32,625 bases of DNA from Candidatus Woesearchaeota archaeon (GTDB lineage: Archaea > Nanobdellota > Nanobdellia > Pacearchaeales > GW2011-AR1), in contig CAYXYT010000002.1 of assembly GCA_964469785.1 (NCBI GenBank), forward strand, positions 1 to 32,625, read 5' to 3'. The notes beneath the pieces are model-generated. The model had not been told where the DNA came from and did no database searches. It saw nothing but the letters and a program-made list of their open reading frames with translations. A program made the position numbers and the translations under genes. Shown here piece by piece: positions 610 to 16,874 of the stretch (position 1 is its first letter; each line of letters opens with the position of its first letter).

Positions 610-3600
610 ATGAAAAATATATTTGTTGCCTTGATTTTGGTGGTTTTATTAACAGGACTTGCAAGTGCGGGAATTGTTGCAACAATTGGGATGCAGGGGT
701 TGAGCTTTGTAAATCCCCAATTAGGAGGAATGATTAGCACTGCTGTAAGTGTATATAGTTGTGTGACTTCTGCTGGTTTGGTTGGGTGTGGTAGCTTGAT
801 TGTTCAAAATAAAGTAGTTGAAGCTATTTATGGAGAAGCTTTACAAGCAATAGCAGAGGTAAGCCCCGAAGCTGCCAAAGCCATCATTACATATAATCAG
901 GTTAAGAGTTATATTGACCAGGGAGCAGAAATAATAAAAGAGTTTAAACTTGATGAGAATGGAAATCCAACAGAGTGGGGCATGGATTTTAATGAAGAAG
1001 AATATGCTATTGGAAATTGGGTTGGAAACTTAAGTGCAGAGGATGTTATTACGTCAAATGCAAGGTATGATTCTGAAACTAGGAATCTAATCATAAAAGA
1101 AAATGGTTTTCTAAAAATTAAGATTAAAGACGAAGAAGGAAATGTCATTCAAGAACTAGTTTATAAAAACATTAGAAAAGGCGGAGTTTTCAAATTAGAC
1201 GAAAACGGCCAGGTAGAAGAAGCTAGCATTGTCTCGAGTGAAGATGGTTCTATTTATAAATTTGGAGATAATGATGCAATAAAGGTGGGTGCTGACACAA
1301 AAGTAGTGTATAAAGATGGTGTTGTGAAAATAATTGGCAGAGATAAAAATTTTCTTTATGGGAATTTAAATATAACCTTAAACAAAGATTATGTTGATTT
1401 ATTTAGAAATAAGGTAAATTGCGTTAACTGTGAAGTTGATGGGATTAAATTAAGTGGTGTAAGGGCGGGTGTTGCAAGTTTAAGTATTGAAAAAAAAGGT
1501 TACTTTCTAGAAAGGGGTGTTGCAGATTATAAAAAAATAAGATTAACTGCTGAAAACGAAAGAGGCAGTGTTTTGATTGGAAATTTAGACGAAGATTTAA
1601 GTAGTTATGATAAAAATTGGGTAAAAATAAAGGACGGCGGATTGGAGATTAATAGCGTCTTAAAAAAACAAATAAATTTAGAAGTATTGCCAGGTAATGA
1701 ACTTTTAAACACCTTTCAATTTCAAGTTAAAAGAGATGATGAAGGAGAATTTGTTCTCGATGAAAGTGGTGGGCTTATCCCAGAGATAGTTCCAGATAAT
1801 AGAGACAATCTTAAGTTTGAAATTTCTAATGGTGATGATTTGAAAATAATTGGTAGAGAGGACCAAAACAAAATCCCTTTGGTAATTCATAACCCTTCTG
1901 AGAGTGGATCAACAATTATAGAAAATGGCAGGCTTAGTTTCAGAATAGAAGGCGGTGAATTTAAGATTGGAGTTCCTAAGACAATAGAAGAATCTCTTTT
2001 AATAGAAGAGGCAAAGTTTGAAAGTGTGGCTTTCCAATTAAAAACTTCTTCATTAAAAGACCATGAATTAAGAATAAATTCTGGAAACATGTATGAGATT
2101 TTATCCCCCGACCAGGTTGAGAGCCCAATTACTTTTAATTCAAAAGGGTTTAGACTTAGTGATTCTATTGATGATAATCTTTACACTCAAACACTGGATT
2201 ATTTAAGAACAAAATATCCAGATATTGTCTTCTATGTTTCTTCTAAAGAAGGGGGTATATATAAAGAACCAAGTCCACAGGTGATACAATTACTAGACCA
2301 GTGGTTTGCAGAAGATCTCAAAAGGACAGAATTTTTTGAAGAAGTTGCCTTTACAGAAGTATTTAATTCAGCAGCAGGTTATAAATATTTGATGTTGGGT
2401 GAGGGAGCCTATGATTTATATGCAACCAAACAAATTAGAGATGTTAACAACCCCTTACAAATTTTAACACACGAGTTTGAGCATGAAATGGACTGGCATA
2501 TAACCTTTGATGAAGAAGAAAGACTTAAAGAATTTGAAAGAACTGACAAAACTGCAAGGGAGTTATCAAGAGCGACTAAGCAACAGAATAATCTTCAAAA
2601 TATCTACTATTCTGTGGAAAACTATCATAAGCCAAATCCTTCTGAAGGGCTTTTTTCAGGACTTGTTCCAGAAGAAAAAAGGGAAGAGTATGAGGAATAT
2701 ATGAAGTTGCCTTTAATAGAGAGAAATAAAGTAGATATATTAAAATACCAGAAAGAGATTGAGAAACTTAGAGGAGAACTTTATTCTTCATTATCTAAAT
2801 CTAGTGAAGTTGAGAATGTAAAGAGCAAACTTGAAAAAGTTGCCAGTATGGGTGAAAGAAGACAAGAATTATATGATCTTATTTTTAATCCTAACACAGA
2901 AAAATTAAGTTTCAAAGAAGCAGATCCTTATTTAGAAGAAATTGCTTCTTTAACAACAGAAATTGATACAGAGTTGGAATATATTAAATATGATCTAGAA
3001 AAGACAGGTTATGGGAAAGAGGTTACGAGTCCTATAATAGGTATGCAAAACCTTTATTTTTTCTTAGATAGAAAGCCGACTATGGGAATTGAAGCAAGAG
3101 TAGACTGGCATGGAGAGGATCTCTGGGTTCGTTCACATTATCAAAAGAAAAAGAACTCGTTACTTGATGAGGTGCCTTATCTGAAAGAACAATTTGAAAA
3201 ATATCTCGCAAGCAATCCAAAAACAAAAAAATTAGAGCACATATATAGTGAAATAAGCATCGATACTTCTTATGATATTATTCATGACGACAAGATGAAA
3301 CTCATTAGAAATAGGGCTGCTGGAGAGCTAAAACAAAAATTAGTGACTGATTATAATGTTGATTTTTGGGAGATAAGAGAGAAATACATAAATGAAAAAA
3401 GAAGAAATTATCCTATTCCAAAAGAAGAATTTTTAGCACTAAGTATGGAGGACCAAGAATTGATTTTAATACATGATGCCTCATTTGATCTTATGTTAGA
3501 TACTGAACACTATGAAGAGGGAAAAGGCCTTGTAGCTGATCCAGAACTTGATTTTTTGAGTGAATTAGCGTTCTCTTTATCAAGATTAAGAGATGACAAA

Positions 3601-4122
3601 GTGCAGAAATATACCAAAGAAGCTACTAAAGAAAGATTTTCTGATGAGGGAGGGATTCCCCCGTTAAGACAGATGTTTGAGTTAGAGTTTTTATTAAAAT
3701 CTGAAAGACTTGAAGACAACCCCTGGTTTGAACAACTTTCCACTGAGTTAAAAAACCTGTACGAGGTAGACCATGGTTTGCCTGCTTCTTATGGTTTCCA
3801 TAACTATGGAAATAGTGAAAAAAAATATTCTGGAAGATATTCAGAAATAGCTTCTACCTACAGAGAACAGCCTATTGAAGTAAGAAGATTTAAAATACAT
3901 CAGGGAACTCCCGGGCAGAAAAGCTTGTTCAAGAAACTAACACAAATAGCGTTTGATGCGGGAAAAATGGATGTAGAAGAGTATACACAATTAATGGGAC
4001 AAGACAATGACGGAGATGACATGGGGGATCTATTTTGCCAAAGTGAAGATTGCATAGAATACAGGTGTGTGGAATACAAATTCTTGTGTTGCTTACAACA
4101 TCCTAATTCACCTAATTGTTAA
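610..4122 (+). CDS. Very large (1170 aa) secreted protein with a single HExxH motif and a C-terminal Cys knot; function unknown (possible zincin-like domain)
   Basis: Uninterrupted 3.5-kb ORF. N-terminal signal-like segment MKNIFVALILVVLLTGLASA. HEFEH at nt 2468-2482. Long K/E-rich, probably helical, middle part. The last 30 aa carry 7 Cys (CQSEDCIEYRCVEYKFLCCLQHPNSPNC). The start codon abuts the upstream stop. Confidence 0.75.
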   Translation: MKNIFVALILVVLLTGLASAGIVATIGMQGLSFVNPQLGGMISTAVSVYSCVTSAGLVGCGSLIVQNKVVEAIYGEALQAIAEVSPEAAKAIITYNQVKSYIDQGAEIIKEFKLDENGNPTEWGMDFNEEEYAIGNWVGNLSAEDVITSNARYDSETRNLIIKENGFLKIKIKDEEGNVIQELVYKNIRKGGVFKLDENGQVEEASIVSSEDGSIYKFGDNDAIKVGADTKVVYKDGVVKIIGRDKNFLYGNLNITLNKDYVDLFRNKVNCVNCEVDGIKLSGVRAGVASLSIEKKGYFLERGVADYKKIRLTAENERGSVLIGNLDEDLSSYDKNWVKIKDGGLEINSVLKKQINLEVLPGNELLNTFQFQVKRDDEGEFVLDESGGLIPEIVPDNRDNLKFEISNGDDLKIIGREDQNKIPLVIHNPSESGSTIIENGRLSFRIEGGEFKIGVPKTIEESLLIEEAKFESVAFQLKTSSLKDHELRINSGNMYEILSPDQVESPITFNSKGFRLSDSIDDNLYTQTLDYLRTKYPDIVFYVSSKEGGIYKEPSPQVIQLLDQWFAEDLKRTEFFEEVAFTEVFNSAAGYKYLMLGEGAYDLYATKQIRDVNNPLQILTHEFEHEMDWHITFDEEERLKEFERTDKTARELSRATKQQNNLQNIYYSVENYHKPNPSEGLFSGLVPEEKREEYEEYMKLPLIERNKVDILKYQKEIEKLRGELYSSLSKSSEVENVKSKLEKVASMGERRQELYDLIFNPNTEKLSFKEADPYLEEIASLTTEIDTELEYIKYDLEKTGYGKEVTSPIIGMQNLYFFLDRKPTMGIEARVDWHGEDLWVRSHYQKKKNSLLDEVPYLKEQFEKYLASNPKTKKLEHIYSEISIDTSYDIIHDDKMKLIRNRAAGELKQKLVTDYNVDFWEIREKYINEKRRNYPIPKEEFLALSMEDQELILIHDASFDLMLDTEHYEEGKGLVADPELDFLSELAFSLSRLRDDKVQKYTKEATKERFSDEGGIPPLRQMFELEFLLKSERLEDNPWFEQLSTELKNLYEVDHGLPASYGFHNYGNSEKKYSGRYSEIASTYREQPIEVRRFKIHQGTPGQKSLFKKLTQIAFDAGKMDVEEYTQLMGQDNDGDDMGDLFCQSEDCIEYRCVEYKFLCCLQHPNSPNC

Positions 4123-9373: not shown

Positions 9374-10099
9374 ATGCTTGTTAAACTGGAAAACCCAGGT
9401 CTTCTTACAAAAGTAATTGAAATTATCTCTGATTTAGTTACAGAAGTTAGAATAAAAATCAGTGATATCGGCCTTAGCATAGTTGCAAGGGATCCTGCAA
9501 ATGTTTCTATGATTGGGTTTTGGCTGCCAAAAACAAGTTTCTCCCGGTTTGAAGCTGGCGAAGAGGTTTTGGGAGTTAATCTAGAAAATTTAAAAAGGAT
9601 TTTAAAAAGAGCTGGTCCTGGAAGCTCTCTGGTCTTGGAAAAAAAAGATAATTTGTTAGAAATTCAAATTCAAGACAGGATAAGAAGAAATTTCACTCTA
9701 AGTTTAATTGATATAGATACAGAGGAAAAAGATATGCCAGAGCTTGAGTTTAGTTCAAAAGTGGAGCTGAATTCAATTGACCTTGTTGCAGCTGTTGAAG
9801 ATTGTGCTGTTGTTGCAGATGCTTGCTCATTTATAATTCAGGAAGGCAGGTTTATAATTGAGGCTCGGGGCTTGAATTCAGCTATGTCTGAATTCTCAGG
9901 AGATGAAGCAAGAATACAAGCAGAAAACTGCAAAGCAAAATACAGCCTTGAGTATCTTCAGAAATTCGTAAAAGCTTCAAAGCTTTCTGAAAAAACAATT
10001 TTAAGGTTTGCAGAAGATCATCCTCTAAGAATAGATATTAAATCTCCTGAAATAGAGTTAAGTTTTATTCTCGCACCAAGAGTTGAGACCGAGGACTAG
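9374..10099 (+). CDS. pcn: DNA polymerase sliding clamp PCNA
   Basis: 241 aa. Typical archaeal PCNA length and pattern (MLVKLENPGLLTKVIEIISDLVTEV...GLSIVARDPANVSM...YSLEYLQKF...LSFILAPRVE). Divergent from the primase gene. Confidence 0.9.
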   Translation: MLVKLENPGLLTKVIEIISDLVTEVRIKISDIGLSIVARDPANVSMIGFWLPKTSFSRFEAGEEVLGVNLENLKRILKRAGPGSSLVLEKKDNLLEIQIQDRIRRNFTLSLIDIDTEEKDMPELEFSSKVELNSIDLVAAVEDCAVVADACSFIIQEGRFIIEARGLNSAMSEFSGDEARIQAENCKAKYSLEYLQKFVKASKLSEKTILRFAEDHPLRIDIKSPEIELSFILAPRVETED

Positions 10100-10375
10100 T
10101 GATTTAGTAATTAGAATGTATTAAGGGAAATCGCTGGTCTGAGTAGAGGATTAGCGCGAAGACAAAACTAGTAATTAATAACGAGCGCTGGTCTGAGTAG
10201 AGGACTAGTGATTTAGTAATTAGAATGTATTAAGGGAAATCACTGGTCTGAGTAGGGGATTAGCGCGAAGACAAAACTACTAATTAATAACGAGCGCTGG
10301 TCTGAGTAGAGGACTAGTGATTTAGTAACTGAGAGATATTAATAAAAATCACTGGTCTGAGTAGAGGGCTGGTGG
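10093..10375 (+). repeat. 109-bp tandem repeat, about 2.6 copies, starting inside the PCNA stop codon region. It holds five direct copies of the core CTGGTCTGAGTAG and three conserved hairpins
   Basis: Unit starts at 10093, 10202 and 10311. Copies 1 and 2 differ at 3 positions; copy 3 is degenerate. Cores start at 10134, 10188, 10243, 10297 and 10352 (54-55 bp spacing). Hairpins lie at 10093-10140, 10202-10249 and 10311-10358: a 13-bp stem GGACTAGTGATTT / AAATC[G/A]CTGGTCT with a 22-nt loop. Confidence 0.9.
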
Positions 10376-10467
10376 TTTATTAACACAGATTATCCAAATC
10401 TGATTATTTCTAAGCTATGTTTCATAAAAGCTAAGGACTAAATACAAAATTAATTATTCTAACAAAA

Positions 10468-10475
10468 TTTATAAA
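10468..10475 (+). promoter_or_regulatory. Candidate TATA box for the pilin-like gene cluster starting at 10497
   Basis: TTTATAAA, 21 nt upstream of ATG 10497. Confidence 0.4.
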
Positions 10476-10496: not shown

Positions 10497-11252
10497 ATGA
10501 TGAATAAAAGAGGTCAGGTGACTATTTTCATTATTATTGCAGTGATTGTTGTTGGTGCGGCAGCCTTATTTTATATGCTCTCTCCAAAACTTGGAATTGA
10601 TTTAACAGGTAGAGTAAAAAATCCGCAGGATTTTATTAGAACATGTGTTGAAGAAGATTTAGAAGAGATTGTAGAGAGTGTTTCTTTACAAGGGGGAAGT
10701 TTAAATCCAGAACATTATTTCACATATAACAATATTAGAATAGAATACTTATGCTATATAAATCAGTATTATGCTCCGTGCATAATTCAGCAACCATTAT
10801 TGAAACAACACATTGAAGAAGAAATAAATACCGGAATTGAAAATATAGTAGATAATTGCTTTAATGCTTTAAAAGAGAGTTACGAAGATAAAGGATATGA
10901 TGTGGTTATAAGACCTGATGGAAAAAGAACAGAGCTGCTTCCAAAAAGAATTATTTTAGAAATGGGTTACAGTGTTATTTTAACAAAAGATGAATCTGAA
11001 GAGTATACTAAGTTCAATATAATTCTGAACAATAATCTTTATGAATTAATAGCTATTGCTAATAGTATATTAGAATGGGAGACAACATATGGTGACGCAG
11101 ACCCAACAATTTACATGACTTATTATCCTGATTTAAAAGTTGAGAAAAACCTTCGTGATGATGGAACAACAATTTATATATTAACAGACAGGCCGAGTGG
11201 AGATAAATTCCAGTTTGCTTCAAGAAGTGTGGCATGGCCAGCTGGTTATTAA
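10497..11252 (+). CDS. Class III signal peptide (type IV pilin-like) protein, paralog of the 1..609 product
   Basis: N-terminus MMNKRGQVTIFIIIAVIVVGAAALFYM: a short basic stretch, then [KR]G followed by Q, then a hydrophobic helix, as in archaeal prepilins. 251 aa. Confidence 0.7.
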   Translation: MMNKRGQVTIFIIIAVIVVGAAALFYMLSPKLGIDLTGRVKNPQDFIRTCVEEDLEEIVESVSLQGGSLNPEHYFTYNNIRIEYLCYINQYYAPCIIQQPLLKQHIEEEINTGIENIVDNCFNALKESYEDKGYDVVIRPDGKRTELLPKRIILEMGYSVILTKDESEEYTKFNIILNNNLYELIAIANSILEWETTYGDADPTIYMTYYPDLKVEKNLRDDGTTIYILTDRPSGDKFQFASRSVAWPAGY

Positions 11253-11253
11253 A

Positions 11254-11646
11254 ATGAGAAGAAAAATAATCACAAAAATAGAAAATTTATATAAAATTGT
11301 AAGAGAAATTTCTAAAAGAGAAAATGTTGCAGGGGTTTATTTATTTGGAAGTCATGCTACTAGAAAAAACAATGCTCTTTCAGATATAGATTTATGCGTA
11401 ATTGGTAATTTAAAAAATAAGGAAAAAACAGATATCTTAGGCTATACAACAGATAATTTAGATATTTCTTTCTTTAATGATTTACCGATTTGGATTAAAA
11501 TAAGAGTCCTAAAACAGGGTAGAGCTTTAATTGTTAAAGATAAAGAGTTTATTGATAAAATTAAGATAAATATTGCAAGAAAATATTTAGACTTTAAATA
11601 TATACTTAATCGATATTGCCTGGAGGTTTTGGGATGTACGATATAG
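11254..11646 (+). CDS. mntA: Minimal nucleotidyltransferase (MNT / MntA-like antitoxin)
   Basis: GS-x(9)-SDIDL signature (LFGSHATRKNNALSDIDLCV, nt 11347-11393). About 130 aa. I use the in-frame ATG at 11254, 1 nt after the upstream stop, instead of 11197, which would overlap the previous gene by 56 nt. Confidence 0.8.
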   Translation: MRRKIITKIENLYKIVREISKRENVAGVYLFGSHATRKNNALSDIDLCVIGNLKNKEKTDILGYTTDNLDISFFNDLPIWIKIRVLKQGRALIVKDKEFIDKIKINIARKYLDFKYILNRYCLEVLGCTI

Positions 11647-12050
11647 AAAGAATTACAAAAATAATAAAAGACATTGAAAAATATCAACGAGAATTAAAAG
11701 AGGTTAATGTAAATTCTATAAAAGATTTGGAAGATGGCACTAAACTCCACGCATCTTCTATGTTATGCTTTTCAATACTTAACAGGGTAATTGATTTGGG
11801 GCAAGAAATTTTAGTCAAAGAAGATTATGGAATGCCCTCAAGATATTCAGAGATTTTTGATAATTTAGTAAAAGCCGGGTTGTTAAATAAAAAAGAAACA
11901 GAAGAACTAAATGAATTAATTGGTCTTAGAAATATAATTGCTCATACTTACTTTGAGATAAGTAAAAAAGATATTTTCAAAATAATTAAGAAATTATCTT
12001 TGATTAATAATTTTGTTGAAAAAATAAAAAAGAGGATTAAAAATGGCTAG
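11634..12050 (+). CDS. hepT: HEPN-domain (DUF86-type, HepT-like) putative RNase toxin
   Basis: Rx4H motif RNIIAH at nt 11928-11945. About 138 aa. ATG 11634 lies 6 nt downstream of GGAGGT (11622-11627) and overlaps the MNT gene's 3' end by 13 nt, the typical MNT-HEPN pair architecture. Confidence 0.8.
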   Translation: MYDIERITKIIKDIEKYQRELKEVNVNSIKDLEDGTKLHASSMLCFSILNRVIDLGQEILVKEDYGMPSRYSEIFDNLVKAGLLNKKETEELNELIGLRNIIAHTYFEISKKDIFKIIKKLSLINNFVEKIKKRIKNG

Positions 12051-12165
12051 ACAAACAACAAAATTGGGAGGAAAAAGAGATTGGGTATTTTGGATTTTAT
12101 TAGTAATCCTCGTACTTGGACTTATACTATTAATTAAAATTTTAATTGCTGGGGGATTAGGATGA
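12043..12165 (+). CDS. Possible 40-aa single-pass membrane micro-protein (below ORF-track cutoff)
   Basis: My translation: MARQTTKLGGKRDWVFWILLVILVLGLILLIKILIAGGLG. Its ATG overlaps the HEPN stop by 8 nt, and its TGA overlaps the ATG of the next gene (ATGA). A GAGGA lies 8 nt upstream. Confidence 0.4.
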   Translation: MARQTTKLGGKRDWVFWILLVILVLGLILLIKILIAGGLG

Positions 12166-13934
12166 TGAATAAAAAACTTTTGTTAATTATGTTTGGGGTT
12201 TTTCTAGCTGTGTTTTTAACAGGCATCGCAAGTGCTGTTTGTTGTGAAAAAACCGACGCTGGAGCATGGTGTCAGGATGTTATTGATGAAGCAAATTGTG
12301 ATGATGGTTTTAGAACTGAACCCACTGCTTGTTTGTCAACAACTTATTGCAGCGAAGGAACGTGTGTTAATCGTCATACAGGAGAGTGTCTACCAAGCCC
12401 ACAATCAACATGTGACCCGACAATGGGGGGTTATTGGTATGATAAGGATTCTGATGAGGTTGATGAGTGCCAGTTAGGGTGTTGTTTGGTTGGAGATGGT
12501 GCTGCTCTTGTCTCGAGAGTTAGGTGCGATAAGATGGCTTCTGATTATAATTTAGAAGTTCATGATTTTAGAGAAGATGTTCAAGAGTCATTCGAATGTT
12601 CAATGATGGCGAGTCCTGAAGCAAAAGGCGCCTGTGTTACTAGCATAGAAAGGAGAAGAGATTGTGACATGACAACAAGGCAGGAGTGCCAAGATGCAAC
12701 TGGTGAATTTCACGAGGGCTTTTTATGCACAGCTCCTGAACTAGGGACAATCTGCGCAATGACAAGGCAAACTACTTGTGCTGAAGGAGAAATTGAAGTT
12801 TATTTTAAAGATTCTTGTGGAAACAATGCAAATATTTATGATGCTAGTTTAGTTGATGATACTAATTACTGGACATATATTAAAGACCCATCAGATTCTG
12901 ATGAAACCTGTGGTGTTGGATACTCAAATGCAAATTCAAAAACATGTGGAAATTGTAATTATATTTTTGGAAGTATTTGTGGAGCTTATAGATTAGGAGT
13001 AGATGTAAAACCAGATCACGGTGATTTTGTGTGCAGAGATTTAAAATGTAAATCAGGAAATCTTGCTGAAAAATTTAAGCAAGATTACGAAAGGTGGCCA
13101 GAACATGGTGAAGCATGGTGCTCTTATTCAACAGGAAAACCTTATGACGATTTTGGAAATTTTGAAGATGCAAAGCCAGGACAACTATCTTCCCGACTTT
13201 ATTGCTACAATGGAGAGGTTCAGGGAAATTTGTGTGATAACTTTAGAAACACCCTTTGCATGAAAAATACAACAACAGGGGCTGCTGCCTGCGTTCCAAA
13301 TAGATGGCAAACATGTTTTGGTCAGAATAATACAGATGATTGTGAAAATGAAGATAAGAGAGACTGCAAAGTTGTAAATAACCCAAATTATAAAGTTAGT
13401 CTTAGAAGAGATTCTGAAACAGGATATGAGGAATTATATTTTGGAGATAGTGATACTGGAAAAAAAATAAGGGCGTTTTGTGTTCCAAAATATCCGCCAG
13501 CACTTAATTTCTGGGACCCTCAAGCAGATATCCCTGTCACTGAATTAGAAGAAAATGTAGATACTCAAGAAAAACTATGTAATCTTGCAAATACCTTTTG
13601 TCCTGCTATGTACACTAAAGAAGTCGCGAAGGAAAATTGGGATGCTTGGGAACCTAAATCTGGGGAACTTATTGATGGTGAATGGTATGATTTAGATGTA
13701 TATGGAGATTTATATGACGATGGGACGAGATCTTATTGTTTTAAAGGAAAAGATAATGTTGGAAAAAGCTTGCCTGAAAAAATGCCTGTAAAAGAAAACT
13801 GGATAAAAGGCGCTCAAAATTATTGCTTGCCTATAGGGGATTGTGGTGTAAAATCAAATTATTGGGGTTATGAAGGTTATAATAAATGGAAACATCTCTT
13901 TACCGGAGATTATAAGGAGAGTAGTCTGCCATAA
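12162..13934 (+). CDS. Secreted, extremely cysteine-rich 590-aa protein, function unknown
   Basis: Signal peptide MMNKKLLLIMFGVFLAVFLTGIASA. About 40 Cys by hand count, spread over the whole length (VCCEKTDAGAWCQD...CSEGTCVN...). No TM anchor at the C-terminus. Confidence 0.8.
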   Translation: MMNKKLLLIMFGVFLAVFLTGIASAVCCEKTDAGAWCQDVIDEANCDDGFRTEPTACLSTTYCSEGTCVNRHTGECLPSPQSTCDPTMGGYWYDKDSDEVDECQLGCCLVGDGAALVSRVRCDKMASDYNLEVHDFREDVQESFECSMMASPEAKGACVTSIERRRDCDMTTRQECQDATGEFHEGFLCTAPELGTICAMTRQTTCAEGEIEVYFKDSCGNNANIYDASLVDDTNYWTYIKDPSDSDETCGVGYSNANSKTCGNCNYIFGSICGAYRLGVDVKPDHGDFVCRDLKCKSGNLAEKFKQDYERWPEHGEAWCSYSTGKPYDDFGNFEDAKPGQLSSRLYCYNGEVQGNLCDNFRNTLCMKNTTTGAAACVPNRWQTCFGQNNTDDCENEDKRDCKVVNNPNYKVSLRRDSETGYEELYFGDSDTGKKIRAFCVPKYPPALNFWDPQADIPVTELEENVDTQEKLCNLANTFCPAMYTKEVAKENWDAWEPKSGELIDGEWYDLDVYGDLYDDGTRSYCFKGKDNVGKSLPEKMPVKENWIKGAQNYCLPIGDCGVKSNYWGYEGYNKWKHLFTGDYKESSLP

Positions 13935-13942
13935 TTTAGAAA

Positions 13943-14791
13943 ATGAAAACATTAGGAAATGCATTAAGAAAAATTGGAATGGGGGGGCTTGGAATAAGCT
14001 TAGCAGGACTTTTATCTCTCGGTTCTGAGTCATGCACTCCTGCCCAGCAAAAAGTAGTTGCAGGAGATGTGATAATGGAAGAAGCAAAAACACCAGAACA
14101 ATTGATGGCAGGATATCTTTTGAAAACTATCGGAACAATGGAGCATGATATAGAAGTTGCAGAAGCTGGAAAAGATGAGATTAATATTAATATTGAGAGA
14201 GCTATACCAGGAGAGAGAAGCACTAGATATGAAAATTTAATTTATCGTGGGAACAATCAGTATAGTCCTGCAAAAGGACATAAAGGGGTGACTAGCGATG
14301 CAAGAGATGTAGATGTTTGGCCAATTAAAAAAAGGGTGGATGAATATGATTTTGGTCAGAGAGTAATTGGAAAATGGATAGCCCTTCCGCTGAATTTTAC
14401 ATGTAAGGGTTTTAAAGATTATAATGGAGATGGATATATTGGTAAAGATGAACTAATTGGTTTAAAAAATTATTTTCCTTGCAAAGCTCTAGGAGATACA
14501 ACCAGGGTATTGTGTGGTTCTTCATGGACGAATGTAAAAGGTAAAAAAATTATTGGGAAACTTAGCAAGACAAATACCGGAGAAATATTAATGATAGATA
14601 ACAACGATGATGGGATGTGGCTGGAAGGAAGAGCAAGATGGATGCGTGCTAATTTTTATAAGGGAAAAGATATTCACGGAATAAAAAGTTATACTGTTGA
14701 ATGGTTTGTTGATGGAAGATTAATTCCCACTAGAACGATTAATTTTTTTGTAGATTATGGAGAAAAAATTGAAAATGAAAACCAAGAATAA
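13943..14791 (+). CDS. Secreted/lipoprotein-like protein with one canonical EF-hand Ca-binding loop
   Basis: N-terminus MKTLGNALRKIGMGGLGISLAGLLSLGSESC (lipobox-like Cys). DYNGDGYIGKDE at nt 14417-14452 fits DxNxDGxIxxxE. Confidence 0.7.
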   Translation: MKTLGNALRKIGMGGLGISLAGLLSLGSESCTPAQQKVVAGDVIMEEAKTPEQLMAGYLLKTIGTMEHDIEVAEAGKDEININIERAIPGERSTRYENLIYRGNNQYSPAKGHKGVTSDARDVDVWPIKKRVDEYDFGQRVIGKWIALPLNFTCKGFKDYNGDGYIGKDELIGLKNYFPCKALGDTTRVLCGSSWTNVKGKKIIGKLSKTNTGEILMIDNNDDGMWLEGRARWMRANFYKGKDIHGIKSYTVEWFVDGRLIPTRTINFFVDYGEKIENENQE

Positions 14792-16874
14792 AAAAGGTGC
14801 GCTTGCAATAAGCCAGATTCTGATTTTGATAATTGGAATTATAGCTATTGGTTATGCTTTTGGAAGTCAGGTTGGAGTTGTTAGTGGGCAGCTTGGAACC
14901 ACTCCTTTGTCGACAGGAACGCCCACTGCAACGTCAAGTTACTATATTAATCCTTTTGGTTCTCATCCGTTTCTCCCTGGAATTGGTACTATGATTCGGG
15001 ATTTGAAACAGAGGATAGCCAGTGAATTATCAATTGTAAACATGTTTTATCATGCAGTAGGTGCCTTTATTGCTGCTTTTGTTATTGCGGCATTAGTAAG
15101 TAGCGCTATGGGAGGGGGTGTTGACTGGGACTTTGCAACAAGATTTGGCGGGGCTGTTTCTACAACCTGGCTGTCTGCAGAAAGTGGATTTAAGGCAGGC
15201 GAATGGGCTGCTAGAAGTACAGGACTCGCAGACGCGGGAGGTGTTCTCGGAGGGATTGGAACCGCATTGCCTTGGCTTGTTGCCGGAATTGCAGCGTGGG
15301 TTGCATGGCAAAGTGTTAAAGGATGGTTGCAAAAAATAGATGAGAGAACCATATACTTCGAGTGCAAATACTGGCAACCTCAAACAGGTGGAAATAATTG
15401 CGAATCGTGTAATAACGGAGCATTTCCTTGCACAGAATATCAGTGCAAAAGCCTTGGTGTTGCTTGTGACATCATAAATAAAGATACAGATGATCAAGAG
15501 TGCTTTTGGAACAATTCTCAAGATATAACTCCCCCATATATAGAGGCATGGGAAGATGCATTATTGCCTGATTATGAATATAAACCAATTCCAGAGCTAA
15601 GAACAGGCCGCGGTGTTGAAATTAAATATACTGATGAAAATAACCAAGAACAAGAATGCTTACCCGCCTGGACAGTATTTACATATGGAATAACTCTAGA
15701 TAAAAGAGGGCATTGTAGAATTGAGAAGCATACAACAAATAGCTTCTCTGAGATGACTCGTGATTTTGGAGGCAGCCAGACTTGGAAAACAGAGCATAAA
15801 CAATGGATGATATTTCCAGACGTGGCTTATATAGAGGCAGAAGCAGAAGAATCAGGAATTGAAATTGATGTTGATAATAATTATGAATATTATGTGAGGT
15901 GTGAAAATGAAAACGGCTATCCAAATGTTAAAGAATTCTTATTTAAATTTTGCATTGAAGAAGGTCCTGATTATACAGAACCAGAAATTGTTGGATTTAG
16001 CGTGGCTGATAACACTCCAATTCCATTTTTTGCAGAAAATGCTTTACACGAATATCCTATAGAAGCTTATGTTAACAAACCAGCCCAGTGTAAATGGAGT
16101 CATAATGACCGAGATTACAAAGATATGGAAAACAGCATGAGTTGTGCAACAAGCTCCTCTAATATAAATGCTCAGCTCTTATATACTTGCACCACAACAC
16201 TAACAGGCCTGGAAAACAGACAAGAAAACAAATTCTACTTCAGATGCAACAGCAGTTATTTTGGAATTGTGAATGAACAATCCAGGGTTCTCACTCTAAT
16301 TGGAACACAACCACTTGTAATTAGTTCTGCAAGCCCTAATAACACAATAATAAGGGGGTCTTCAGACAGCATCAAAGTAAGTATAGAAGCAACAACGTCT
16401 GCAGGTTATCAAGACGGGACAGCAGCTTGTGCTTATAGTGATACAGGACATTATGATGATTATACAGTGTTTGACGAGACAAATTCACATCAACACTCCA
16501 CAGATATCTGGTTAGGTGAAGGAGATTATGGATTTTACATCCAGTGTTTTGACCTGGCTGGGAACTCAGATGTTGAGATAATAAACTTCACACTTGAGAT
16601 AGACGCTCAGGCTCCAATAGTTGTTAGGGCATTTAGAGAAGGCAGCTCTTTGAAAATAATCACAGATGAAGAAGCAGAGTGTGTTTATAATCCACAATCT
16701 ACGCTTGGGTGTGGCTATAACTTTGAAGATGGGTTGGCAATGACAAGTTATGATGATATAAGTCATACTGTGGCATGGGAAGAAGAGACATTTTATATTA
16801 AATGCAAAGATGAGTTTGGAAATCAGCCAGCATTTAACCAGTGCAGCATAATTGTGAGGCCGTTTGAAGTATAA
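14775..16874 (+). CDS. Chimeric surface protein: class III (pilin-like) signal, Gly/Ala-rich multi-helix hydrophobic region, Cys-rich linker, four tandem ~100-aa beta modules
   Basis: The ORF track starts at 14757. The internal ATG 14775 gives MKTKNKKGALAISQILILIIGIIAIGYAF. The hydrophobic G/A-rich region lies around nt 15040-15340. Four modules each hold C-x-[IWY]... and end in [YF]-[YF]-[VFI]-[RQK]-C-x-[NSD]-x(2,3)-G: HCRIE..YYVRCENENG, QCKWS..FYFRCNSSYFG, ACAYS..FYIQCFDLAGN, ECVYN..FYIKCKDEFGN. Confidence 0.75.
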   Translation: MKTKNKKGALAISQILILIIGIIAIGYAFGSQVGVVSGQLGTTPLSTGTPTATSSYYINPFGSHPFLPGIGTMIRDLKQRIASELSIVNMFYHAVGAFIAAFVIAALVSSAMGGGVDWDFATRFGGAVSTTWLSAESGFKAGEWAARSTGLADAGGVLGGIGTALPWLVAGIAAWVAWQSVKGWLQKIDERTIYFECKYWQPQTGGNNCESCNNGAFPCTEYQCKSLGVACDIINKDTDDQECFWNNSQDITPPYIEAWEDALLPDYEYKPIPELRTGRGVEIKYTDENNQEQECLPAWTVFTYGITLDKRGHCRIEKHTTNSFSEMTRDFGGSQTWKTEHKQWMIFPDVAYIEAEAEESGIEIDVDNNYEYYVRCENENGYPNVKEFLFKFCIEEGPDYTEPEIVGFSVADNTPIPFFAENALHEYPIEAYVNKPAQCKWSHNDRDYKDMENSMSCATSSSNINAQLLYTCTTTLTGLENRQENKFYFRCNSSYFGIVNEQSRVLTLIGTQPLVISSASPNNTIIRGSSDSIKVSIEATTSAGYQDGTAACAYSDTGHYDDYTVFDETNSHQHSTDIWLGEGDYGFYIQCFDLAGNSDVEIINFTLEIDAQAPIVVRAFREGSSLKIITDEEAECVYNPQSTLGCGYNFEDGLAMTSYDDISHTVAWEEETFYIKCKDEFGNQPAFNQCSIIVRPFEV

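Follow-up and report, generated by a model that had tools for sequence, protein, structure and literature searches.

A putative type VII HepT/MntA module as probable in-line cargo at a recurrently filled junction of a DPANN surface-protein operon

The gene pair described here lies on a 32,625-nt stretch of DNA (the window), which is contig C2 of the 639-kb, about 90% complete genome of a Candidatus Woesearchaeota archaeon (G000), a DPANN archaeon with a small genome. Between 10497 and 16874, every gene is on the + strand with nearly no spacing. The string opens with pil (10497..11252), which encodes a 251-aa “pilin-like” protein and whose stop codon TAA at 11250-11252 is separated by a single nucleotide from the ATG of mntA at 11254. 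mntA (11254..11646) encodes a minimal nucleotidyltransferase (MNT) of 130 aa, a candidate type VII antitoxin, and shares a 13-nt overlap with hepT (11634..12050, with its ATG at 11634), which encodes a candidate HEPN RNase toxin of 138 aa; a Shine-Dalgarno-like GGAGGT motif (11622..11627) is located inside the 3′ end of mntA, 6 nt before the hepT ATG. The hepT stop codon TAG (12048-12050) is overlapped by 8 nt by the gene for a 40-aa single-pass membrane micro-protein (12043..12165), the stop of which overlaps the start of cys (12162..13934) in an ATGA sequence. The product of cys is a Cys-rich secreted protein of 590 aa. After 8 nt follows a lipoprotein-like gene of 282 aa with an EF-hand loop (13943-14791), which overlaps the 705-aa gene p705 (14757-16874) that ends the operon; p705 orthologs come after cys in relatives as well. 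The coordinates and overlaps given in the first-pass annotation for the string from pil to cys are all correct. In the following, the interval between pil as left flank and cys as right flank is referred to as the slot.

To the left of pil is an archaeal PCNA gene (9374-10099). Between the two lies a tandem repeat array (10093-10380) with about six copies of units that contain ctggtctgagtagagga, positioned upstream of the candidate operon promoter. This putative promoter is a TATA-like box, TTTATAAA, at 10468..10475 on the + strand, and its location 28 nt before the pil ATG suggests that pil is a leaderless first gene. Signals for transcription start and stop were assessed as simple TATA-like strings and counts of T runs, and are suggestive only. 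One T5 run is present inside the pair, and dense T6–T8 runs appear only after 16874. Additional TATA-like strings occur within pil and mntA (at 11173, 11286, and 11593), and an internal promoter could conceivably be present there in DNA this rich in A and T. Intergenic room upstream of the pair for a promoter of its own is absent, with a 1-nt spacer on the pil side and overlaps on the other. Because the genes have no spacers between them, read-through transcription combined with translational coupling is the simplest reading of the arrangement.

The mntA product matches the Pfam families Polbeta (PF18765; 1.1e-12) and NTP_transf_2 (PF01909; 2e-9), both beyond the cut-off, and scores 53.4 bits with the NCBIfam model MntA_antitoxin (NF047752), a near miss of the 60-bit equivalog cut-off. 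The hepT product matches PF01934 (DUF86; 8.9e-21) and passes the 60-bit cut-off of NCBIfam HepT_toxin with 69.8 bits. Type VII HepT/MntA was defined experimentally by the signature motifs GSx10DxD and Rx4HxY, where MntA oligo-AMPylates the Tyr of Rx4HxY in HepT and thereby blocks the RNase (PMC7641770). In mntA, GSx10DxD takes the form GS-HATRKNNALS-DID (G32-S33 ... D44-I-D46). The Rx4HxY of hepT, which combines RNase motif and acceptor Tyr, reads RNIIAHTY and aligns with GLRNIAVHDY of the solved Shewanella oneidensis HepT (PDB codes 5yep/6m6u). Both motifs are kept in all orthologs examined, and the two genes are adjacent, co-directional, and overlapping, with the MNT gene upstream, as in the type VII gene arrangement. 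By each of these sequence criteria, save the one near miss of a curated score, type VII HepT/MntA gains a new member in this pair, which is probably a genuine and active module. The domain matches, the two motifs, and the 13-nt overlap also bear out the earlier proposal of an overlapping MntA/HepT-like pair inside a string of surface-protein genes.

A second MNT/HEPN pair of G000 (C25:3214-4133; L001 938-1815) is free-standing and of a different subtype. Its MNT protein has 176 aa with an N-terminal extension, and its HEPN protein has 116 aa with the sequence RDLLIHRY and is 47–57% identical to slot HEPNs of L088 and G134.

The label “pilin-like” for the left flank refers to the N-terminus only. 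The protein begins with MMNKRGQ/VTIFIIIAVIVVGAAALFYML, which resembles a class III signal (KRGQ/VTIFIIIAVIVV) and is followed by a hydrophobic helix; Q7, T9, and F11 are invariant in 30 orthologs. An AF2 model (pLDDT 87) has a helix at residues 4–27 and an alpha/beta domain. No match was found to the pil product in Pfam or NCBIfam, nor to the model among PDB folds at E≤0.001. Throughout the family, the C-terminal motif KFQFASRSxAWPPGY hardly varies.

At the left edge of the window, the genes at 1-609 and 610-4122 had been taken as a paralogous arrangement in which the pair is missing. Paralogy stands weakly for 1-609, which is 25% identical to pil (E 0.006) and at best a very distant paralog. 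The 610-4122 protein shares nothing with the 590-aa cys protein but a signal peptide, and in L137 a module of the left-edge type is simply the unit that precedes pil. As a control for an empty site, the left-edge arrangement was rejected on these grounds.

The state of the junction in relatives was surveyed in 80 loci (601 kb) fetched with a pil profile, 79 of which gave a pil–cys gap; the related contigs in this sample carry the names of Candidatus Pacearchaeota, Woesearchaeota, or Nanoarchaeota MAGs. pil itself is present in 372 of 401 sampled family genomes. The pil–cys gap is at most 100 nt in 52 of the 79 loci, with a median of 34 nt, and in the same-genus genome G001, where the order is PCNA, pil, cys, the true spacer is 7 nt. 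Since pil and cys abut in most relatives, G001 included, the approximately 910 nt with mntA, hepT, and the micro-ORF are cargo rather than core. The G001 assembly (C13; L016 2250-2420) has a 100-N scaffold gap exactly at the pil/cys junction, bordered left and right by one and the same stretch of ~55 nt, which may be a scaffolding artefact or else may reflect filled and empty slot alleles that coexist in the sample.

A homolog at E≤1e-10 is present in 25 of the 401 family genomes. The nearest HepT homologs in a large protein collection, 75% and 69% identical, are both located at the same pil/cys junction, on groundwater metagenome contigs (L027/L028 and L031) with pil orthologs that are 57–60% identical. 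An orthologous pair occupies this junction in about 9 of the 401 family genomes and in these two metagenome contigs. The G000 lineage of the pair recurs here in about 10 genera and lies between pil and cys in G120, G156, G045, G209, G047, G128, G134, and G073. In G205, the pair is placed directly upstream of pil instead. Identity to the G000 proteins at this junction is 42–75% for HepT and 51–62% for MNT, and goes down to 38% for the flanking pil. The 13-nt MNT/HepT overlap is present in all slot orthologs, and a 4-nt overlap between HepT and cys also recurs. Free-standing relatives, in housekeeping neighbourhoods, have an 8-nt MNT/HepT overlap and upstream gaps of 30–320 nt. The hepT gene of G047 was considered as a pseudogene; its apparent stops fall on an N-run of the assembly, and this assignment was discarded.

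The same position also receives other genes. The slot exceeds 250 nt in 20 of the 79 loci, and 11 of those 20 (11 of 79 overall) carry genes of the toxin–antitoxin (TA) type. These comprise G000-type MntA/HepT pairs (L061, L102, and L132), shorter MNT/HepT-like pairs that match PF01909 and PF01934 (L071, L088, L097, L114, and L126), solo MNT genes (L060, L074, and L087), and a ParE-like toxin with a small partner (L071); in G134, two different MNT/HEPN pairs are found within one slot. The HepT-like proteins of the slot form at least four sub-lineages that are less than 45% identical or not alignable by BLAST, and all of them have Rx4HxY. Cargo other than TA genes includes families of single-pass (33–40 aa), two-TM (85–126 aa), and approximately 100-aa membrane proteins, as well as a lipoprotein related to the 282-aa gene of the window. 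The latter is a 225-aa lipoprotein-like protein in the pil/cys slot of L131 (3908-4585), a relation seen by visual inspection of shared motifs only. The 282-aa gene of G000 is itself placed at the cys/p705 junction, where TA pairs are found elsewhere, and it looks like movable cargo too. Two further slots hold a 68-aa soluble ORF that overlaps both neighbours (L019 2271-2477, in G006) and a 92-aa ORF with two CxxC pairs and a zinc-ribbon-like look (L068 4735-5013).

An HMM scan for MNT- and HepT-like ORFs around pil, covering all 80 loci (601 kb), returned 11 HepT-like and 21 MNT-like ORFs, all 32 of which are on the operon strand. Of these, 8 HepT-like and 11 MNT-like ORFs fall in the pil/cys slot; those outside it come directly after cys or before pil, with junctions of −35 to +2 nt, and L088 has three in-line TA-like pairs in one operon. 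Against a background of about 0.76 HepT-like genes per family genome (G000 has two), the enrichment of HepT-like genes around pil is approximately 17-fold per Mb, a rough figure that combines two genome samples and treats related, non-independent genomes as separate. Based on this distribution, the pil/cys junction is, at the level of gene content, a recurring landing place for TA modules and small membrane-protein genes. The operon-embedded modules include five solo MNTs, while a HepT never stands alone, which is the outcome that a toxic HEPN partner would predict. Pairs with the HEPN gene first are seen at other junctions of the operon (L088 7147-8450, L059 61-734, and L072 7773-8455), and consist of a classical HEPN of about 125 aa followed by an MNT of about 105 aa. 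The solo MNT of L087 retains an N-terminal stub similar to a HEPN start, which suggests a decayed pair of this HEPN-first type.

The micro-ORF does not belong to the pair. Its product is identical in 23 of 40 positions, and in 21 of 28 over the membrane helix, to that of a 40-aa ORF in the slot of L058, where TA genes are absent, and the two ORFs have eight synonymous codon differences. Similar ORFs of 33–37 aa are found in L115 and L125, and a weak match connects the micro-ORF product to two-TM proteins of 85/88 aa (E 3e-4, obtained with a tiny database and no composition correction). The homolog in the TA-less L058 slot rules out both that the micro-ORF is part of the TA module and that it is a chance ORF. 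Judged from this conservation, the ORF is a true gene for a micro-protein and fills the slot independently of the pair.

In a tree of MNT proteins, the slot copies form one clade together with four “escaped” copies, with support of 100/99; the HepT tree is consistent with this clade at weaker support. The pil and cys trees, on the other hand, have pair-bearing and empty loci intermixed: the empty G003 and the pair-bearing G209 are sisters at 99/99, and G000 (pair) groups with the empty G001, G005, and G008 at 99/97. The starred branches on these trees require at least three changes. Resolution of the pil and cys trees is poor, which leaves the count of gains and losses uncertain. The concatenated data for the pair reject a clade of the cys tree (AU p ~1e-7); the group in question was picked post hoc, which makes this conflict weak support. 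Read from these trees, a TA lineage tied to the slot has repeatedly been gained, lost, or exchanged.

The GC content of the pair is 0.25, compared with 0.32–0.38 in the flanks and 0.33 in the genome, and GC3 is 0.17–0.22 in the pair and 0.21 in pil. A comparison of composition over 11254-12050 had been proposed at the outset; a total GC below that of the flanks was found, with a GC3 that is not distinct from pil. Recent foreign origin was dismissed as a deduction from composition, since total GC is lower yet GC3 is like that of pil, which makes the measure uninformative.

The first-pass annotation had left two alternatives, precise insertion of the pair into an operon junction or functional wiring of the pair to the locus, and had suggested a comparison of orthologous loci. 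This comparison finds a pair of the same lineage at the exact pil/cys junction again and again, with most loci empty. Precise insertion agrees with the empty junction in G001 and most other relatives, but not as a unique event, given the recurrence of the lineage in about 10 genera and the presence of other TA lineages. Wiring holds in a limited sense, as regards the recurrent, same-strand, and spacer-less association; the patchy presence of the pair, in less than 20% of loci, argues against a role that the operon itself needs.

The explanation that we favour, with a probability of about 0.72, is that a genuine and probably active type VII module sits here as in-line cargo, in a slot of variable content within a conserved surface-protein operon of a DPANN archaeon. 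By analogy with the family, the GSx10DxD site of MntA would oligo-AMPylate the Tyr in Rx4HxY of HepT, and this modification would keep the HEPN RNase silent. Should the supply of MntA fail, HepT would be expected to cleave RNA, and the cell would arrest. As the module leaves no space for a separate promoter or terminator, its transcription most likely starts at the promoter before pil, and translation is most likely coupled through the 1-nt spacer and the subsequent overlaps of 13, 8, and 4 nt. In such a coupled arrangement, the order of mntA and hepT means that antitoxin would be made before toxin whenever the operon is on.

With regard to how the slot is filled, the pil/cys junction, and to a lesser extent the junctions before pil and after cys, appear to hold promoter-less small genes repeatedly. 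Cargo may enter, or move between lineages, by recombination through the conserved flanks, for which the KFQFASRSxAWPPGY motif that closes pil and the signal/CCEKT segment that opens cys are candidates. TA modules would then accumulate in the slot since they are presumably hard to lose once in. As to benefit, the leading candidates are stabilisation of a recombination-prone surface locus and abortive-infection defence.

A stronger version of this interpretation, which we regard as doubtful, is that the operon junctions constitute a dedicated and selected docking system for promoter-less MNT/HEPN modules of several lineages, by which survival or RNA turnover is coupled to expression of the surface apparatus. 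If true, this would amount to more than TA modules merely piling up at a permissive site: the modules would be an addiction device that locks in the host-attachment locus, or an infection-triggered suicide switch wired to a virus receptor.

Closely related, and improbable in our judgement as an account of its own, is the proposal that positive selection acts on the slot as a small island of defence or “anti-deletion” genes. It refines the reading as in-line cargo rather than excluding it, and comes in two versions. In the first, TA modules are kept because they guard a surface locus with tandem paralogs, prone to recombination, against deletion. In the second, they cut short infections by viruses that exploit the surface structure encoded there. 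In favour of the proposal are the tandem pil and cys-like paralogs of relatives, which are in direct orientation with about 4.6 kb between them, weak PADLOC matches to candidate defence HEPN/MNT systems, and the approximately 17-fold TA enrichment near pil, with several junctions of one operon involved. Against it, further recognisable defence genes were not seen in the slots, and the enrichment could come from permissiveness and the difficulty of losing TA modules.

The pair could alternatively be an integral regulator of the operon, where for example processing of the polycistronic mRNA by HepT, tuned by MntA, would determine how much pilin-like protein is made relative to the large downstream proteins. 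Such a function would fit the strictly in-line, spacer-less, same-strand position between the first gene and the large genes, as well as the persistence of the association over the deep divergence of the flanks, and MNT/HEPN proteins are known from “housekeeping” contexts in DPANN (PMC6393860). We nevertheless consider this very unlikely: only ~10–20% of loci have the pair, with an empty junction elsewhere, the slot also takes in several TA types that are unrelated to each other, ParE-like among them, as well as unrelated membrane micro-proteins, and the solo MNT remnants indicate decay. Finally, a one-off, recent, and neutral insertion of a mobile TA cassette in G000, with the choice of junction incidental, would account for the lack of cargo at this junction in G001 and the closest pil relatives and for the AT-richness of the pair, but is largely refuted by the same-lineage pairs at the same junction in about 10 genera with HepT identities of 42–75%, by the other TA lineages in the slot, and by a GC3 like that of pil.

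In-line cargo of this kind can be compared with several known systems. Defence hotspots of P2/P4-like phages and satellites, and the TA cassettes of chromosomal integrons, have conserved flanks and interchangeable small cargo, with TA or defence genes over-represented and the cargo oriented with the surrounding transcription unit. The slot resembles them in its conserved flanks, its TA-rich interchangeable cargo, and its operon orientation, but it is situated in a cellular archaeal surface-protein operon, lacks an integrase, attC-like sites, and spacers, and takes up its cargo seamlessly and apparently promoter-less. CreTA addiction modules are embedded in CRISPR-cas operons, are RNA-based, and depend mechanistically on Cascade. 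As for CreTA, the pair is a TA element inside a functional gene cluster and could make loss of the cluster costly; unlike CreTA, it is a protein type VII module that is not known to depend on the flanking genes. With type VII HepT/MntA as described in PMC7641770, the pair shares the two small genes, the upstream MNT, the overlapping HEPN, and both motifs, but it is no free-standing operon with an intergenic promoter region, being joined to the genes of a host operon through overlapping stops and starts. The slot lineage is further set apart by its 13-nt overlap and an MNT C-terminal tail ending in ...CTI, compared with 8 nt in the free-standing relatives. The DPANN-conserved MNT-HEPN fusion cls.004259 (NEQ050) is widely conserved and found in housekeeping neighbourhoods (Makarova et al. 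2019, PMC6393860). It likewise combines MNT and HEPN in DPANN in a non-canonical context outside islands, whereas the pair described here consists of two separate genes, is patchy, and lies in a slot of a surface operon. A description of TA modules inside DPANN pilin-like operons was not found in the literature searched, the coverage of which is incomplete.

As judged from its genes, the pair itself is an ordinary-looking type VII module, and what is new is the context, a spacer-less in-line embedding in a recurrent slot that is used by several TA lineages. A single translationally coupled junction, in an operon that a large family of ultra-small archaea carries in over 90% of its genomes, repeatedly hosts at least four MNT/HepT lineages together with ParE-like genes and micro-proteins, always in-line, and a 40-aa ORF is rescued as a real conserved micro-protein gene. 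The slot thereby offers an example of TA genes that most likely rely on the promoter of their host operon, and a comparative system for why TA modules settle where they do, be it a permissive site, locus stabilisation, or defence. It is also a marker of rapid cargo turnover in a surface locus that probably mediates contact with hosts and viruses in DPANN archaea.
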